A DNA stretch of 20,950 nucleotides from an uncultured virus (IMG/VR IMGVR_UViG_3300005764_000014). Its lineage: Duplodnaviria > Heunggongvirae > Uroviricota > Caudoviricetes. Numbering within the stretch: position 1 is the stretch's first letter; each line of letters opens with the position of its first letter. Shown one piece after another: positions 1-14,715 of this stretch. The DNA lies in IMG/VR virus record IMGVR_UViG_3300005764_000014. The stretch is one strand, 5' to 3'. A model generated the notes under the pieces. The model had not been told where the DNA came from. It saw only the letters and a list, made by a program, of their open reading frames with translations, and did not search any database. A program made the position numbers and the translations under genes.

Positions 1-728
1 CCTACCTGCCGAACGCCAAGTGCATCAACGCCCCGGAGTTCGCCAACCTGGTCAAGGCCGGGCTGGCCGTGGTGCTGGTGTGGGAAGACACCGGCCGCGA
101 CTGCGCCCGCGGCCACGCCGGCGGGGTGGCTGATGCCACCGAGGCGAACAAGCAGGCGCACGCGCTCGGCGCGGGCAGCGCGGTGATCTACTTCGCGCCG
201 TGCGACTATGACGCGCCGCCAGGCGACCAGCCCTCGATCAACGCCTACATGCAGGGTGCGGCGTCGGTGCTCGGGCACAACCGCACCGGCATGTACGGCG
301 GCTACTGGCCGCTGTCGCGGGCGCTGTCCGCGAACGTGTGCAAGTACGGCTGGCAGACCTACGCCTGGTCCGGCGGCAACTGGGACAAGCGGGCGCAACT
401 GCAGCAGTACCAGAACGGCGCGCGGCTGGGCCCGTGCGAATGCGACTACGACCGGTCCACCCAGCCGGACTACGGGCAGTGGCCCCGCCCGGCCGCGCCC
501 GCGCCCGCTCCCGCGCCGGTTGCCACCGCGCCGTCGCGTACCGCCAGCGGGGCCTACCGGCATCCCCAGGCCCACCCGATCACCCTGGAGGCCTGGGCGG
601 CCTCCCGCAACGAGCAGGTGGCCACCGCCTGGCGGATCTGGGTGACCAACATGACCGGCGACGACCTGGCCGCGTTCGCCAAGCTCGACCTGCCTGCGGG
701 CACGGTCTTCTATACCGTGAACCCGTGA
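1..728 (+). CDS. DUF1906/GH25-like peptidoglycan hydrolase, probable endolysin (5' truncated by window edge)
   Basis: Frame is open from base 3 (YLPNAKCINAPEF...). Motifs VVLVWE, IYFAPCDYD, GMYGGY, WQTYAWSGG, QLQQY, CDYD resemble Rv2525c/DUF1906 hydrolases. A Pro/Ala linker leads to a short C-terminal domain, possibly a divergent LysM-like domain. Confidence 0.8.
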   Translation, partial: YLPNAKCINAPEFANLVKAGLAVVLVWEDTGRDCARGHAGGVADATEANKQAHALGAGSAVIYFAPCDYDAPPGDQPSINAYMQGAASVLGHNRTGMYGGYWPLSRALSANVCKYGWQTYAWSGGNWDKRAQLQQYQNGARLGPCECDYDRSTQPDYGQWPRPAAPAPAPAPVATAPSRTASGAYRHPQAHPITLEAWAASRNEQVATAWRIWVTNMTGDDLAAFAKLDLPAGTVFYTVNP

Positions 729-2245: not shown

Positions 2246-2719
2246 TCAGGCCGAGCGGGCTGATCGTAGCACTCGCCCAGGCCGGTGCCGGGCCCGCAGC
2301 TCGGCGGCGTGGATCGCCGCCGCGCCTTCCAGGCTCGACCGCCCCCAGGTGGCGTGGTAGTACACCGTGCCGGCGGGGGTCACCCAGTAGATGCCCTTCA
2401 TCCCGTTGCACGCCTTGCACAGCGCTGCGAGGTTCGGGTACCAGGTCAGCCCTCCCATGATCCACGGGGTGATGTGGTCGATCTGCAGCGCGTGCCCCGA
2501 GGACCGCGCGGTGGCCCCGCAGCCGACACACCGGTTGCCGTCGGCGGCCAGCACCTTGCGCCGCAGCCGGGCGGTGATCCGGTCATGCTTGCCACGGACC
2601 CCGTGGCGGACGGTGGCCCGCCAGCGCTGCCGCCAGCGGCGCGGGAACAGCAGCCCGCGCGGGTGCACGTAGCAGGCCGCGACCAGCAGCAGCGCGGCGA
2701 TGGCCTCAGCGGTGCTCAC
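2246..2719 (-). CDS. HNH endonuclease with hydrophobic N-terminus
   Basis: RRKVLAADGNRCVGCG...LQIDHITPWIMGG...NLAALCKACNGMKG is a classic HNH/Zn-ribbon signature; GTG at 2719 overlaps the upstream TGA. Confidence 0.85.
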   Translation of the reverse strand: MSTAEAIAALLLVAACYVHPRGLLFPRRWRQRWRATVRHGVRGKHDRITARLRRKVLAADGNRCVGCGATARSSGHALQIDHITPWIMGGLTWYPNLAALCKACNGMKGIYWVTPAGTVYYHATWGRSSLEGAAAIHAAELRARHRPGRVLRSARSA

Positions 2720-2877
2720 CGCTGCTCCGGGCAGGCGCAGCCGGGCTCGTGCACGATGAACCCGAGCCTGGTGCGGTAGCACGGCGGCACCGGGTCGGGC
2801 TTCGGCTGCCGGGGCACCGGCCCGGCGGGGGTCTGCCGCTCGCTGGCCCACCAGCGGTTCCAGCGTCTCGCGTTCAC
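2716..2877 (-). CDS. small hypothetical protein (53 aa, not in ORF track)
   Basis: MNARRWNRWW...PPCYRTRLGFIVHEPGCACPEQR*; GAGGA RBS; fills the traB-HNH gap with a GTGA overlap. Confidence 0.6.
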   Translation of the reverse strand: MNARRWNRWWASERQTPAGPVPRQPKPDPVPPCYRTRLGFIVHEPGCACPEQR

Positions 2878-2884
2878 GTCCTCA

Positions 2885-4759
2885 TCATCTCCCTGTCGGC
2901 TCCAGCAGGCCGCTGGACTCGCGCAGCTTGCCCGCCTCGATCAGCCGGTCCACTTCGGTGCTGATCGTAGTCAGCGGCATGTCCGCGATCAGCTCGGTGA
3001 TCAGCTCGCCCATGCCCATCGGCCGATTCGCCAGCGCGAGCAGGATCATCAACTGCCGCGAGCTGGCCGCCTCGGCGTCGGCCTGGATGCCCGCTAGCAC
3101 CTGCCCCGCCGCCTCGATCGTGTCGGCCATCACGTCCCACACCAGGCTGTCGGGGTGGCGGATGGTCAGCGACTCCGCGGTCTCGTACGGGTCGGCCAGC
3201 TTGTCCGTCCGCATCGTGACCTCGGGCCGGTTGTCCGGCCCGGAGGCATACCCCAGGCCCCAGGTGGGGGTGCCGTCGGAGAAGTACCGGGGCAGGTCGC
3301 GGGGGTTGTTCGGCAGGTTGACGTAGCCGCCGGTGACCGCGTCCCCGGTGCGCCCGCACCACACGTTCCCGCCGACCAGGATGGACCGGACCTCCTGGGC
3401 CTTCAGCTCGGCCAGGGACGGCACCTGGGCGGCCAGCCGCAGCCGGAAGCCGACCTTGCGGCCGAGCTTCAGCAGGTCGAGAATCAGCGCCGCCGCGCCC
3501 TTGGAGGCCAGCAGGATCGGGGCCTCGTCAATGGTGATCTCGATGATCGGCACGTCGACCATGAACGGGTTGAAGAACCCCATCCCCCTGCGCCGCTTGC
3601 AGGCCGGGCCGCACCGCCCCCGGCCGCAGTCGCCGTGCTCGCGGCACCATTCCAGCTCGCTCATCCAGGCCGACCGGGCGAACATCGCCTTGTGCAGCGC
3701 GGCCAGCCAGGTCATGCACTCCTCGATGCCGCGGGCGTAGGGCACGACGTCCCGCCAGGCGGGCAGCGCCTGGCCTTCCTGCGGGTCGAGGATCACTGGG
3801 GCGATGTACCCGGAGCTGGCGGAGATGGCCAGGGACAGGTTCAGCGCGGCGGTCTTGCCGCTGCCGTCGGCCCCGGCGAAGATCGAGTGCTTGACGCCGT
3901 CCTCGGGCAGGTTGTAGAACGCCTCGTGCACCGGCTTGCCGTCGGGGAACCGGCCGATCACCGCGCGGCCGGTTCGCGGGTCGATGCCGATGCCGTCCCA
4001 CAGCCGTACCGCGTCCAGGGTGCCCGAGTTCAGCAGGGTGAGCAGGCCGTGGTGCTTGCGCCCGTCGGGATGGGACTCCGCGAACGCCTCGGTGACCGCC
4101 TTCTCGAACGTGGCGGCGATGTCGGTGCCGCAGGACAGGATCTTGTCGATGGCGTTCCGCGCGCCGTCGAGGCAGATCTCGTACTGGACGCCGTTGTCGA
4201 TCGGCTGCGGCGGGCCCAGCCACGCCACCCATTTCTTGGTGACCGCGAGCCGGGTGAACTTGGCCTCGATCGTCTCGGGCGGCGGGGCGGCGGCGGTGGT
4301 GGGCTTCCACCGGTAGTGCTCCAGCCAGAAGCAGTACGGGATGAACCACCCGGCGAGGGTGACCAGCAGCCACCAGCCGGTGCCCAGCGGCATCAGCGCC
4401 ATCGACCAGGCCGCCGCCCAGGACACCCCGCCCTGGACGTGCCAGCGGTAGAACTTCTCCCGGTGCCGGGTGGCGATCACCACGCACACCTGGGTGCCGA
4501 GCGCGGCAAGCACACCCCACCACGGGTGGCGGGCGAGCGCGGCGAGCGGGCCCGCAGCCATCAGCGCCAGCCAGGTGAACGGCAGCAACTGGTGGCGGAA
4601 CCGGAAGACGTGGATCTCGGCCAGGGGACTGGGCCTGGTGCCGCGCTGCTGCGCGTCGAGGATGGCCTGCAGGTGCTTGGCGTCGGTGCCGTTGGCCGTG
4701 ACGATAACCGGCCCCGGCGTCTTGCGCCGGGGCCGGTCATCGGTGCGGGCCTTGGCCAC
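2885..4759 (-). CDS. traB: FtsK/SpoIIIE-family conjugative DNA translocase (Streptomyces TraB-like)
   Basis: N-terminal TM segments, Walker A GADGSGKT, Walker B IIEITIDE, LGRKVG arginine-finger region, AAQ motif and a C-terminal winged-helix-like domain. Likely start is GTG 4759 after AGGGGA. Confidence 0.85.
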   Translation of the reverse strand: MAKARTDDRPRRKTPGPVIVTANGTDAKHLQAILDAQQRGTRPSPLAEIHVFRFRHQLLPFTWLALMAAGPLAALARHPWWGVLAALGTQVCVVIATRHREKFYRWHVQGGVSWAAAWSMALMPLGTGWWLLVTLAGWFIPYCFWLEHYRWKPTTAAAPPPETIEAKFTRLAVTKKWVAWLGPPQPIDNGVQYEICLDGARNAIDKILSCGTDIAATFEKAVTEAFAESHPDGRKHHGLLTLLNSGTLDAVRLWDGIGIDPRTGRAVIGRFPDGKPVHEAFYNLPEDGVKHSIFAGADGSGKTAALNLSLAISASSGYIAPVILDPQEGQALPAWRDVVPYARGIEECMTWLAALHKAMFARSAWMSELEWCREHGDCGRGRCGPACKRRRGMGFFNPFMVDVPIIEITIDEAPILLASKGAAALILDLLKLGRKVGFRLRLAAQVPSLAELKAQEVRSILVGGNVWCGRTGDAVTGGYVNLPNNPRDLPRYFSDGTPTWGLGYASGPDNRPEVTMRTDKLADPYETAESLTIRHPDSLVWDVMADTIEAAGQVLAGIQADAEAASSRQLMILLALANRPMGMGELITELIADMPLTTISTEVDRLIEAGKLRESSGLLEPTGR

Positions 4760-12855: not shown

Positions 12856-13088
12856 TACCGGCGCTCCGTCCCGTCCGCGTTGATCACGACGGCCATGGTG
12901 TGCCGCTTGTAGCGGATGGTCACCCGGCTGACGCCGAAAGTCTGCGCGTCGGCCTTGTTGACGGCGCGGCCGGTGTGCGCGCCCATAGACAGGACGGTGA
13001 AGTCCTTGCCCTGGTTCCACGCCTCGATGGCCTTGGCCTTGGAGGGGTAGTCCCGCCCGTACGCGGGGCCGACGGTGATGTCTTCCAT
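12855..13088 (-). CDS. small phage protein (77 aa)
   Basis: AGGAG RBS; PAYGRDY..K.......GKDF motif, recalled from phage early genes. Confidence 0.75.
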   Translation of the reverse strand: MEDITVGPAYGRDYPSKAKAIEAWNQGKDFTVLSMGAHTGRAVNKADAQTFGVSRVTIRYKRHTMAVVINADGTERR

Positions 13089-13117
13089 GTCATCTCCTGT
13101 ATCAGAATCTTGCTGCC

Positions 13118-13159
13118 AGACTATGCGCTGGCCTACGCTTCTGTCAACAGTTGAGCAGG
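13118..13159 (-). promoter_or_regulatory. sigma70/HrdB-type promoter with overlapping palindromic operator (copy 1)
   Basis: TTGACA(13147-13142)-N18-TAGTCT(13123-13118); TCAACAGTTGA at 13144-13154. Confidence 0.75.
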
Positions 13160-13164
13160 AGATT

Positions 13165-14715
13165 CTATTCCTTTCCGCGCCGGGCGTGCTCGATGGCGGT
13201 GGCCAGGCTGACAGAGCGCTTCGCACCGCTCGGCCTGGTGCCGCCCACTTCCCGGTCCACCCGTCCGCCGGCGGCGTCGGAGGCCTGCGGGGTGGGCAGC
13301 GTCCGCAGCCCGCGGTGCTTGGCCACCGACCGGGCGGTACTGCTCAGGCCGGCCACCGTCCGCACCACCATGTTCAGCTCGTTGCCGTGCGCGTCCTCCC
13401 CGACTCCGTGCATCGTCGGCAGCAGCGGGATGGCGGGCGAGCTGGCCGGCGGGCGGTCGGCGGGCTCCAGCGGCCCGTACAGGTAGGCCACCGCCATCGC
13501 GGCCTGGGCGGGCACCACGCCGTTGCCGATCGCGCGGAGCTGCGCAGAGCGGGACAGCCCCGGCACGCCGGTGACCCAGCCTGGCGGCAAGCCCATCATC
13601 CACTCAGGGAAGACGGCGGCCATGCGCGGCTGGCCGTTCCGGCCGGGCTCGATCGGGCACGGGGCGGCTATGCCGAAGACCCGCTCCCACCGGGCGACGG
13701 CGGGGCCGTACTCCGCCCAGTCGACCGCTGTCCCAGCTTCGCCGCCCGGGTAGGGGACTGGCCCAGATTCCGGCCAGCCAGCAGCCGCAGGATCTCTCCC
13801 GTCAGCATCGTGTCGCCCCGGGACCGGTGCTGGTTCGGGGAGCCGTGCCGGGCCTCGCCAGTGAGCGGGGTAGGGAGCAAGGCGAGCCCCGCCACCTGAT
13901 CCTCGATCGACGGGTGGTGGCCACCCGCCAGCCGTTTGGCCGCCGGCTGCGCTCCCCCGTTGGAACCCAGGTTCGCCCCCGGCGTGCGGAACAGCCGGGA
14001 GACCTCCGCGGGCAGTTGCTTGCCCTCCCTGCGGTCCCGGGTGTCCATTCCACCCGAGCCCCGCCCAGCCGTGGTCGGCGTCGGCAGGAACCGGGTGACC
14101 ACCGCCACCAGGCCCAGGTGCGACGGCGAGGCCGGCTGGCCGGTGTCCGAGCGGATGTCCCCCCGCGGGTAGGCCCCCTTGAAGTCCCGGGCTGAGGGCG
14201 TGGGCATCAACGGCGACGAGGAACCAGCGCTCGCGGCGGTGGCAGCATCCGGCCCAGTCAGCTCGGAAAAGCCCGTAACGCCCCACATACCCGAGCGCGG
14301 CCAGCGACCGCACGACGGCGTCCATGGCTGCCCCGCCTTCGATAGACAGCAGCCGAGGGACGTTCTCGAACACGAGCACTCTGGGCCGTGCTGCCATTCT
14401 GCTGATCCCTGCCGGGATGTACGGCCAGATCCACCGCTCATCGGCGGTTCCCTTCTGCTTGCCCGCGTTCGACACCGGCTGGCAGGGGAACCCCCCGCAC
14501 AGCACATGCACCGGCGGGACGTCTTCCCACTTGATCTTGGTGATGTCACCCAGGTTCGGCACGCTGGGGAACCGGTGACCGATGATGGTGGCGCAGTGCT
14601 CATCGTTGTCCGCGGCCCACGCTAGGCGCGGGGTGCCGCCGAGCGCGGCGACAACCCCCGCTTCGAGGCCGCCGTAGCCGGTGCAGACCGACCCGACCTC
14701 GTACTCCCCGGTCAT
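13165..14715 (-). CDS. DNA (cytosine-5) methyltransferase
   Basis: Motif I SVCTGYGG, PNLGDI, IV GGFPCQ, VI FENV, VIII HRRERWF, then EWMMGLP and X LRAIGNGVVP. Confidence 0.9.
   Translation of the reverse strand: MTGEYEVGSVCTGYGGLEAGVVAALGGTPRLAWAADNDEHCATIIGHRFPSVPNLGDITKIKWEDVPPVHVLCGGFPCQPVSNAGKQKGTADERWIWPYIPAGISRMAARPRVLVFENVPRLLSIEGGAAMDAVVRSLAALGYVGRYGLFRADWAGCCHRRERWFLVAVDAHALSPGLQGGLPAGGHPLGHRPAGLAVAPGPGGGGHPVPADADHGWAGLGWNGHPGPQGGQATARGGLPAVPHAGGEPGFQRGSAAGGQTAGGWPPPVDRGSGGGARLAPYPAHWRGPARLPEPAPVPGRHDADGRDPAAAGWPESGPVPYPGGEAGTAVDWAEYGPAVARWERVFGIAAPCPIEPGRNGQPRMAAVFPEWMMGLPPGWVTGVPGLSRSAQLRAIGNGVVPAQAAMAVAYLYGPLEPADRPPASSPAIPLLPTMHGVGEDAHGNELNMVVRTVAGLSSTARSVAKHRGLRTLPTPQASDAAGGRVDREVGGTRPSGAKRSVSLATAIEHARRGKE
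13668..14207 (-). CDS. overlapping +1-frame ORF with four (L/F)xTP repeats, nested in the methyltransferase
   Basis: LMPTPSARD, FLPTPTT, LFRTPGA, LLPTPLTGE; codons in this frame are GC3-rich over ~14207-13780 while the main frame looks like a shadow there. Start uncertain. Confidence 0.65.
   Translation of the reverse strand: MPTPSARDFKGAYPRGDIRSDTGQPASPSHLGLVAVVTRFLPTPTTAGRGSGGMDTRDRREGKQLPAEVSRLFRTPGANLGSNGGAQPAAKRLAGGHHPSIEDQVAGLALLPTPLTGEARHGSPNQHRSRGDTMLTGEILRLLAGRNLGQSPTRAAKLGQRSTGRSTAPPSPGGSGSSA

Follow-up and report, generated by a model that had tools for sequence, protein, structure and literature searches.

Natural two-chain C5 DNA methyltransferases are, to our knowledge, textbook rarities, and we know of only one enzyme, from Escherichia coli, for which a gene-in-gene layout in two reading frames has been proven so far. 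The multispecific C5 methyltransferases of the Bacillus phages SPR and H2, and M.phiBssHII, carry several recognition units in single chains, and in phiBssHII these units are reportedly located at separated places in the enzyme. The gene considered here is part of a stretch of 20,950 nucleotides (nt) from an uncultured virus (IMG/VR record IMGVR_UViG_3300005764_000014), which originates from a soil metagenome assembly, has a G+C content of ~71% and will be referred to, in its full length, as the window. Its main frame (frame A) encodes a C5 DNA methyltransferase of 516 amino acids (aa), and a second long open reading frame (ORF) is present within this gene in the +1 frame (frame B). An earlier note, made from the letters of this DNA, had proposed dual coding of the variable region of the methyltransferase, in a +1 frame that overlaps the still open main frame, and the results described below support this proposal. 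The explanation that we favor, with a probability of about 60%, is that the gene specifies a two-chain enzyme, comprised of a catalytic alpha chain with a disordered tether and a separate beta chain of recognition repeats.

M.AquI and M.EcoHK31I are named as the exceptions among the otherwise monomeric C5 methyltransferases (PMC3404938, PMC2836561). M.EcoHK31I of E. coli (YGGCCR) is described as having an alpha chain with motifs I–VIII, motif X and the recognition domain, and a beta chain that contributes motif IX and is encoded wholly in another frame inside the alpha gene (PMC2836561, PMC3404938). Internal initiation of this beta chain, with Met codons of the second frame serving as starts, is reported as well (PMC2836561). 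The two subunits of M.AquI (CYCGRG) result from a split in the variable region, the large subunit carrying motifs I–VIII and the small subunit the distal variable region together with motifs IX and X (PMC3404938).

The window gene is similar to M.EcoHK31I in that its second ORF is in another frame and fully inside the gene for the large chain, and in that the large chain holds motifs I–VIII and X in both cases. The earlier note had cited this enzyme as a precedent, and the position of its beta chain, in another frame inside the alpha gene, makes the choice an apt one (PMC2836561, PMC3404938). However, the small chain of M.EcoHK31I supplies motif IX, which in the window is found in the large chain, and its recognition domain is in the large chain, whereas the four recognition-type repeats of the window are assigned to the small chain. 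The window gene is also set apart by a longer overlap and by its host, a high-GC soil organism. A low-GC relative of the window gene (L013, see below) is like the EcoHK31I beta chain in having motif IX in the +1 frame. The window shares with M.AquI a split in the variable region and a large part with motifs I–VIII, but the M.AquI division matches that of gp80/gp79 of mycobacteriophage Goose and gp32/gp33 of Streptomyces phage Vash and not that of the window, where motifs IX and X stay in the frame of the large chain. The Goose and Vash genes are homologous to the window gene (phrog_1008, phrog_363), and they move into the +1 frame at the same site past motif VIII and have the same frame-B ATG; their main frame ends early, whereas that of the window continues through motifs IX and X into two further repeats. 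By description, the multispecific phage enzymes mentioned above provide the nearest analogy for the repeat array of the window, although those are single chains, and the separated units reported for phiBssHII may be compared with the tail repeats of the window.

The design described here has in common with M.EcoHK31I that one gene is contained inside another, but the division is different, motifs IX and X being in the alpha chain and the recognition-type repeats in the proposed beta chain. A limited look at the literature on mycobacteriophage DNA methylases, in the parts of it that were available, did not find the two-frame layout of actinophages described, which is no proof of its being unpublished; in the same literature, both methylase genes (77 and 78) of Kampy are reported to be early ones, i.e. 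it is stated that they are transcribed early (PMC4626039). The coordinates of the features discussed are collected in Table 1.

Table 1. Features of the methyltransferase gene and of two other genes in the window. A single number is the position given for a motif string or a repeat, in the case of the four frame-B repeats that of the start; frames A and B are the main and the +1 frame.
Feature	Position	Strand	Basis or remark
Frame A ORF, alpha chain, C5 DNA methyltransferase	13165..14715	-	516 aa, coordinates with the stop; ORF list and PF00145
Alpha N-half, residues 1-170, motifs I to VIII	14206..14715	-	PF00145, motif strings, AlphaFold
PCQ (motif IV)	14490	-	Main-frame motif string
ENV (motif VI)	14370	-	Main-frame motif string
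HRRER (motif VIII)	14241	-	Main-frame motif string
Alpha spacer, residues 171-329, Gly/Pro/Ala-rich, stop-free	13729..14205	-	Frame-A reading of B-coded DNA
Alpha C-core, residues ~330-416: W..Y......RWE helix and motifs IX, X	13468..13728	-	Motifs, alignment A1, pLDDT
'...RWE' string	13710	-	Main frame
EWMMG (motif IX)	13605	-	Main frame
GNGV (motif X)	13527	-	Main frame
Alpha tail past motif X, with two in-frame repeats	13168..13467	-	GC3, alignment to P0001
Tail repeat LLPTM	13425	-	Main frame, after motif X
Tail repeat TLPTP	13302	-	Main frame, after motif X
Frame B open stretch, stop to stop, 317 codons	13668..14621	-	Stop codon 13668-13670
Beta repeat zone of four modules, with 13734 as the end of the last matched residue (…AAKL)	13734..14210	-	Homologue matches, dN/dS, GC3
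Beta repeat LMPTP	14210	-	Frame B
Beta repeat FLPTP	14090	-	Frame B
Beta repeat LFRTP	13994	-	Frame B
Beta repeat LLPTP	13880	-	Frame B
Invariant module (LLPTPLTGEARHGSP…MLTGEILRLL…)	13734..13880	-	In the window found in frame B only
Candidate beta start ATG, inside alpha motif VII codons (LGY)	14286..14288	-	206-aa beta
Alternative beta start ATG 14441-14439 with SD-like AAGGGA 14454-14449, 7-nt spacer	14439..14454	-	257-aa beta
Endolysin	3-728	+	phrog_13480, E 1.6e-28
HNH endonuclease	2246-2881	-	phrog_589, E 7.2e-13

The catalytic half of a C5 methyltransferase (motifs I, IV, VI, and VIII) is present in frame A, where PF00145 covers residues 7–170 alone of the 516-aa protein (E 6.3e-29), and the ORF also matches phrog_116, phrog_363, and phrog_1008, each of which is described as 'DNA methyltransferase'. 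Motifs IX and X, which the Pfam match does not reach, form a complete core in the same frame. In alignment A1, the residues G13, G16, P77, C78, E117, N118, V119, R161, and R163 of the catalytic half are invariant, as are E371, W372, G375, G397, and V400 of the C-core, where N398 and G399 are nearly so. No recognition domain was found in this chain between motifs VIII and IX, where the main frame is of low complexity. In the AlphaFold model of the alpha chain, residues 1–175 and 330–415 have predicted local distance difference test (pLDDT) values of 86–97 in most 10-residue blocks, with dips to 62–77 at residues 71–90; residues 330–415 (pLDDT 91–97) are packed against the N-half, and for the tether (residues 178–327) the values are only 26–49. 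The ORF, the Pfam match and the motif strings therefore bear out the 516-aa frame with motifs I–VIII, IX, and X and a low-complexity middle that the earlier note had described, and the two main-frame repeats that it had placed past motif X are found as well. The alpha tail bearing these two repeats aligns with residues 360–455 of the relative P0001, which in that protein precede motif IX, and in the related loci L008 and L009 the modules homologous to the tail repeats sit in the +1 frame. In one contig of the public runs that were examined (X7; depth 2), 146 bases (window 13156–13303, i.e., the last tail repeat and the stop) are swapped for 17 others, which may represent a relative without the last tail repeat.

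The open stretch of frame B is located wholly inside the alpha ORF (13165–14715), and the ORF list contains from it a +1-frame ORF of 311 aa (13668..14603, minus strand). A Pfam search gave no match for this ORF or for the +1 products. All four of the LPTP-type repeats that had been noticed earlier in this frame were recovered, and they match their homologues closely, more so than is expected by chance. The module LLPTP..GEARHGSP.Q.R..G is unchanged in 13/13 aligned beta-type proteins; in P0122, a 206-aa gene-caller product of the same DNA that begins at ATG 14288, this corresponds to residues L137–P141, G144–P151, Q153, R155, and G158, which are invariant in the 13 sequences. Together with the two units in the alpha tail, the four in the +1 frame make up a set of tandem units whose number and order differ between relatives. 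The G+C content at third codon positions (GC3), based upon successive 90-nt segments, is 0.77–0.93 in the main frame from 14715 to ~14330, with a single segment at 0.70, and 0.87–1.00 from ~13755 to 13186. From ~14235 to 13760, the G+C-rich position (0.83–1.00) is position 1 of the main frame, which is position 3 of the +1 frame. The codon bias switches A-B-A along the gene, and the GC3-rich +1 frame claimed for the middle zone is confirmed by this frame-wise analysis.

To compare the layout of this gene with that of its relatives, 13 loci were read in three frames, with L010, L012, and L014 (partial matches) and L011 (no anchor motif) left out. The first LPTP-type repeat past motif VIII is in the +1 frame in 13/13 of these loci, the corresponding string being LLPTC in L008 and L009. 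In the first layout (A-B-A), which is seen in the window, L008, L009, and L016, no stop interrupts frame A between motif I and motif X, and frame B, which holds the repeats, is closed by a stop of its own. The best tblastn segment of the two metagenome loci L008 and L009 is 59–65% identical to P0001, and L016 is from the Rhodococcus phage ReT1v-1 (LC859273, locus 1048–2248). In L008 and L009 the frame B stop comes behind the natural terminal module, and in L016 it is located just ahead of the RWE helix. In the ReT1v-1 record, the +1 repeat ORF (1346–2020) is annotated as a hypothetical protein and only a 50-aa piece (2098–2250) as a DNA methyltransferase; the 400-codon main frame, in which the catalytic half is connected with motifs IX and X, carries no annotation. 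The second layout is that of Goose (L015), a cluster A mycobacteriophage, and of the Streptomyces phage Vash (L017), in which frame A stops soon past motif VIII and the +1 gene holds the repeats, the RWE helix and motifs IX and X. These pairs are annotated as two overlapping 'DNA methyltransferase' genes, the overlap in Goose being 182 nt.

The third layout, that of L002–L006 and L007, places one or two initial repeats in the +1 frame, up to a stop in that frame, with a return to the main frame for the later repeats and for motifs IX and X. L007 is the contig of P0001, the closest full-length relative, and its two +1 repeats followed by a stop (640–882) precede five others in the main frame. 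As its early repeats are in the +1 frame, the annotated 546-aa protein of this locus includes an out-of-frame reading of a repeat (…GGWPPPVDRG…), and this stretch also matches the spacer of the window. In the metagenome contig L013 (45% GC; 2851–3769), both frames are open over 822 nt (306 and 274 codons), with motifs I–VIII and X in the main frame and motif IX, along with two repeats, in the +1 frame; its frame-B ATG at 2936 lies behind AGGAGG, and the main-frame start is a few bases upstream. There are also true one-chain forms, such as P0144, whose catalytic half continues in frame into the first repeat, and P0003 likewise has its repeats in cis. In P0002 all of the repeats follow motif X. 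At window positions 14196–14210, directly past motif VIII, and at the same site in 13/13 loci, the main frame reads A-D-A, A-D-T, or A-N-S and the +1 frame L-P-T-P, and in L013 a main-frame string ahead of motif X shares its nucleotides with the +1-frame motif IX. Two 'conserved motifs' at such shared nucleotides may be one signal that is read twice.

The same type of layout is found in finished genomes of cultured phages. A total of 232 phage records were matched, and of the 20 rows listed among these matches, 17 have a pair of annotated 'DNA methylase/methyltransferase' genes at the matching site. When 1.84 billion cluster representatives were searched by phmmer with the 200 residues of frame B, 426 matches resulted at E up to 0.001, of which 39 were at E up to 1e-10. 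Among the best 40 new representatives, one has a match to PF00145, one a LAGLIDADG match and the other 38 belong to no Pfam family. As only one of them includes the catalytic half, the repeat proteins are mostly called as separate products, although the representatives, being gene-caller products, show the position of the frame and not its translation. Several of the repeat representatives have a conserved N-terminus and end without motifs IX and X, like the beta chain of the window, and others carry both motifs as in Goose.

The selection acting on the two frames was examined in the repeat zone by comparing the window with L007, L008, L009, and L016, in all of which frame B is out of frame with the catalytic half. 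The ratio of nonsynonymous to synonymous substitution rates (dN/dS) is 0.42–0.52 for frame B, which thus evolves under purifying selection, and 1.06–1.76 for frame A, which does not; in the catalytic half, which served as a control, the dN/dS of frame A is 0.29–0.69. The probability of encountering no frame-A stop was estimated from 1000 simulations in which frame B was subjected to synonymous resampling or to codon shuffling. The values obtained by the two procedures, respectively, were 0.003 and 0.007 for L008, 0.003 and 0.008 for L009, 0.000 and 0.001 for L016, and 0.000 and 0.000 for L013, where both frames are stop-free far beyond chance. We conclude that frame B is selected for its encoded content and that frame A, in the B-coded zone, is selected only for openness. 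This combination fits a gene with two products, as a shifting ribosome would not need an open frame A.

The beta chain is probably translated from an internal start. A frame-B ATG located within the motif VII codons, 47 or 44 nt ahead of motif VIII, is present in 13/13 loci. Within the 155 codons examined, the ATG at 14288 in the window arises from the only TAT among four Tyr codons; the conserved ATG is likewise made by the sole TAT in L007–L009 and Vash, and by the sole GAT in Goose. The ATG at 14441 in the window is an alternative candidate, which is preceded by a Shine–Dalgarno (SD)-like site, and AAGGG or AAGGA with an ATG is also present 200 nt before motif VIII in L007, L008, and L009, and at -182 in L016. 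Both of the GAT codons among the seven Asp codons of the catalytic half create frame-B ATGs (14439–14441 and 14601–14603), and GAT GAG of frame A is read as ATG AG. in frame B. In view of the +1 ATG kept in 13/13 loci at the site of 14288 and of the SD-like site before ATG 14441, it is unlikely that the beta chain begins at 14207, where the earlier note had placed the change of frame. The region from motif VIII to the first repeat varies in both sequence and length among the 12 loci compared, with no shared slippery site visible, and for this reason internal initiation is favored for the beta chain.

The binding of the two chains to each other is supported by a structure model. The complex was folded from the alpha chain (516 aa, alignment A1) and residues 1–184 of P0122 as the beta chain (alignment A2), each with its own alignment. 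The three runs gave 0.71, 0.63, and 0.69 (median 0.69), and the best of three controls gave 0.00; the mark applied is reached by 116 of 157 solved complexes and by 2 of 215 mismatched pairs. The runs share at least 34% of their contacts, and the pLDDT of the partner is at least 42. On the alpha side, the modeled interface consists of residues 151–161 (motif VIII), 331–342, 363–374 (motif IX), and 389–398, and on the beta side of residues 128–147 and 162–173, which correspond to the invariant repeat. In the one-chain relative P0003, Foldseek recovers an M.HhaI-like core only (1fjx_A, E 2.1e-13, 171 columns), and AlphaFold has low confidence on its repeats in cis (pLDDT 29–71, below 50 over most of residues 180–342), as it has on the alpha tail.

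A number of observations weigh against a separate beta chain. Both chains, including the translation of either frame, are deduced from sequence. Since the frame-B protein guided the alignments used for dN/dS, and since the modules are repetitive, alignment bias and paralogous pairing are possible. The openness of frame A in the window itself is within the range of chance (P 0.088 by resampling and 0.136 by shuffling). Upstream of motif VIII the evidence for dual coding, which is strong in L013, is weak in the window, where the openness of frame B has P values of 0.39/0.03 and the dN/dS of frame B is 0.74–1.09; in this region, the frame-A dS drops to 0.41–0.51 from 0.81–1.17 (versus L007–L009). 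No SD-like site stands at a usable distance from the conserved ATG at 14288, and the SD-associated ATG was found in only five of the seven loci examined. As P0003 and P0144 carry the module in cis, the result obtained for the complex is of the kind expected for a split gene; it indicates that the module fits the core and is not proof of a separate chain. In addition, the fold of the beta partner itself is uncertain in the model, for which own alignments were used. Lastly, since all repeats of P0002 are past motif X and the alpha tail of the window also has two in-frame repeats, the alpha chain alone might suffice.

This last point leads to the best surviving alternative, which we consider unlikely, viz. 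that only the 516-aa protein is made and works with its tail repeats, the +1 repeats being untranslated, either as a recent leftover from a one-chain ancestor or as a silent reserve of cassettes for return into frame by recombination or indels. Apart from the chance-level openness of frame A in the window and the lack of an SD-like site at ATG 14288, this explanation draws upon the shifts of the repeats in frame and place among relatives, the later repeats of L007 being in the main frame and those of P0002 all past motif X, and upon the homology of the tail repeats of the window to +1-frame repeats of L008. However, a relic or a silent store does not agree with the low dN/dS of frame B in four comparisons, all of them with loci where it is out of frame, nor with its third-position GC of 0.83–1.00. 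In the window, only frame B contains the module that is invariant in 13/13 proteins, and rare codons maintain a frame-B ATG in 13/13 loci. Further, 38 of the best 40 repeat-bearing representatives are without a Pfam family, with only one including the catalytic half, and Goose and Vash would be unable to make motifs IX and X without the +1 frame.

A wider idea, which we put forward only tentatively, is that throughout this family the same DNA serves as recognition cassettes of the beta chain in one frame and as the disordered tether joining the two halves of the alpha chain in the other, and that the cassettes shift between a position in cis, the beta chain and the alpha tail by means of indels and recombination among the repeats. 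If this is true, the movement of cassettes would constitute a fast route to new methylation specificities, which is missed by annotation of one frame or of two 'methylases'.

The earlier note had left a choice between a two-chain enzyme and one assembled by frameshifting. The first of these is now the best reading, and the second has lost ground because no shared slippery site is visible, the main frame is kept open and, in relatives, the +1 frame is closed by a separate stop. In the assembly by recoding, a single chain would be produced by ribosomes that move by +1 past motif VIII (~14207) and back near 13734, resulting in the order motifs I–VIII, repeats, IX, and X. Although this would restore the order seen in the one-chain relatives P0003 and P0144, and a single +1 shift would complete the Goose and Vash enzymes, we consider it quite improbable. 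The window would need two such shifts, the region between motif VIII and the repeats differs in sequence and length among 12 loci, and in the relatives frame A is kept open, which is needless for a shifting ribosome. Frame B also ends at its own stop, which in L008 and L009 follows the terminal module and in L016 directly precedes the RWE helix.

The two junctions between the frames were examined in assembled contigs of public runs, where rare indel variants are invisible. The likely source run (X1) covers the stretch with no difference. The closest record (G001), an IMG/VR provirus, is 100% identical across the methyltransferase gene and is therefore the same DNA, with no independent confirmation derived from it. 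In X4, from another sample and another study, positions 13000–13768 are covered with 0 differences, and the B-to-A junction (~13734) is therefore bridged. In X6, a 2025 sample read from its depth and variant listing rather than from displayed contig rows, the depth is ~7.6 across 14172–14210, about half of it belonging to a variant for which five substitutions are listed; the listing shows no indel from ~14141 to 14241, and the A-to-B junction (14207) is therefore also covered. X7 covers 14034–14184 unchanged. The indels of X6 inside the ORF form two groups that are both off the junctions, a compensating pair at 14136/14139 (net 0) and four small indels at 13453–13465 (net loss of 3 nt), and X7 has a 1-base deletion at 13111, downstream of the gene. 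In the proteins P0123 and P0124, as in the window, the last repeat passes without a break into the shadow of the RWE helix, the only difference of P0123 being a whole-codon gap. Phase variation at G/C runs was also considered and is not supported, as the contigs show no unbalanced indel variant; six runs of 5 or more are present in the gene (3.87 per kb, versus 2.24 per kb in the window). As the junctions are free of indels in contigs from other samples, two compensating sequencing errors, which the earlier note had named as the case that would overturn it, are very unlikely. An artefact of this kind, or a private dead gene, is hardly credible even for a soil metagenome assembly that was checked by contigs rather than raw reads, because contigs of other samples and studies hold both junctions, the indels within the ORF are off-junction with the reading frame restored, the layout recurs in relatives and in finished genomes of cultured phages, and P0123 and P0124 show the same unbroken passage from last repeat to RWE shadow.

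If the gene does specify a two-chain enzyme, its working may be envisaged as follows. The main frame would give rise to the alpha chain, with motifs I–VIII, an unstructured tether of ~160 residues, the RWE helix with motifs IX and X, and the tail repeats. From the +1 frame, a beta chain of ~206 aa (from ATG 14288) or 257 aa (from ATG 14441), ending at the stop at 13668, would be produced, bearing four LPTP-type repeats that include the invariant GEARHGSP module, which the alpha chain is without. Through this module the beta chain would dock on the alpha core beside motifs VIII, IX, and X, at the place where one-chain enzymes hold their target-recognition domain. The tether would be the main-frame reading of the beta-coding DNA, in which selection only bars stops. 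Both chains would presumably be needed for activity, with the repeats reading the DNA sequence. As an orphan phage methyltransferase amid phage genes, the enzyme presumably shields the phage DNA from host restriction.

Of the 20 ORFs tested in the window, 15 have no counterpart in PHROG at E up to 1e-5; the phage genes present include, besides the endolysin and the HNH endonuclease (Table 1), several from PHROG families of unknown function. A search of genome contigs with the +1-frame ORF gave no confirmed relative.

The proposed two-frame design, if true, would be a common and conserved build of anti-restriction methyltransferases in phages of high-GC bacteria, including hundreds of sequenced mycobacteriophages. 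It would have consequences for annotation, where the beta ORFs have no Pfam family, and for predicting the resistance of phages to restriction, and a separable recognition chain would provide a natural model for target swapping in enzyme engineering. In addition, it would clearly exemplify long dual coding on the same strand in which one of the frames is selected only for openness.

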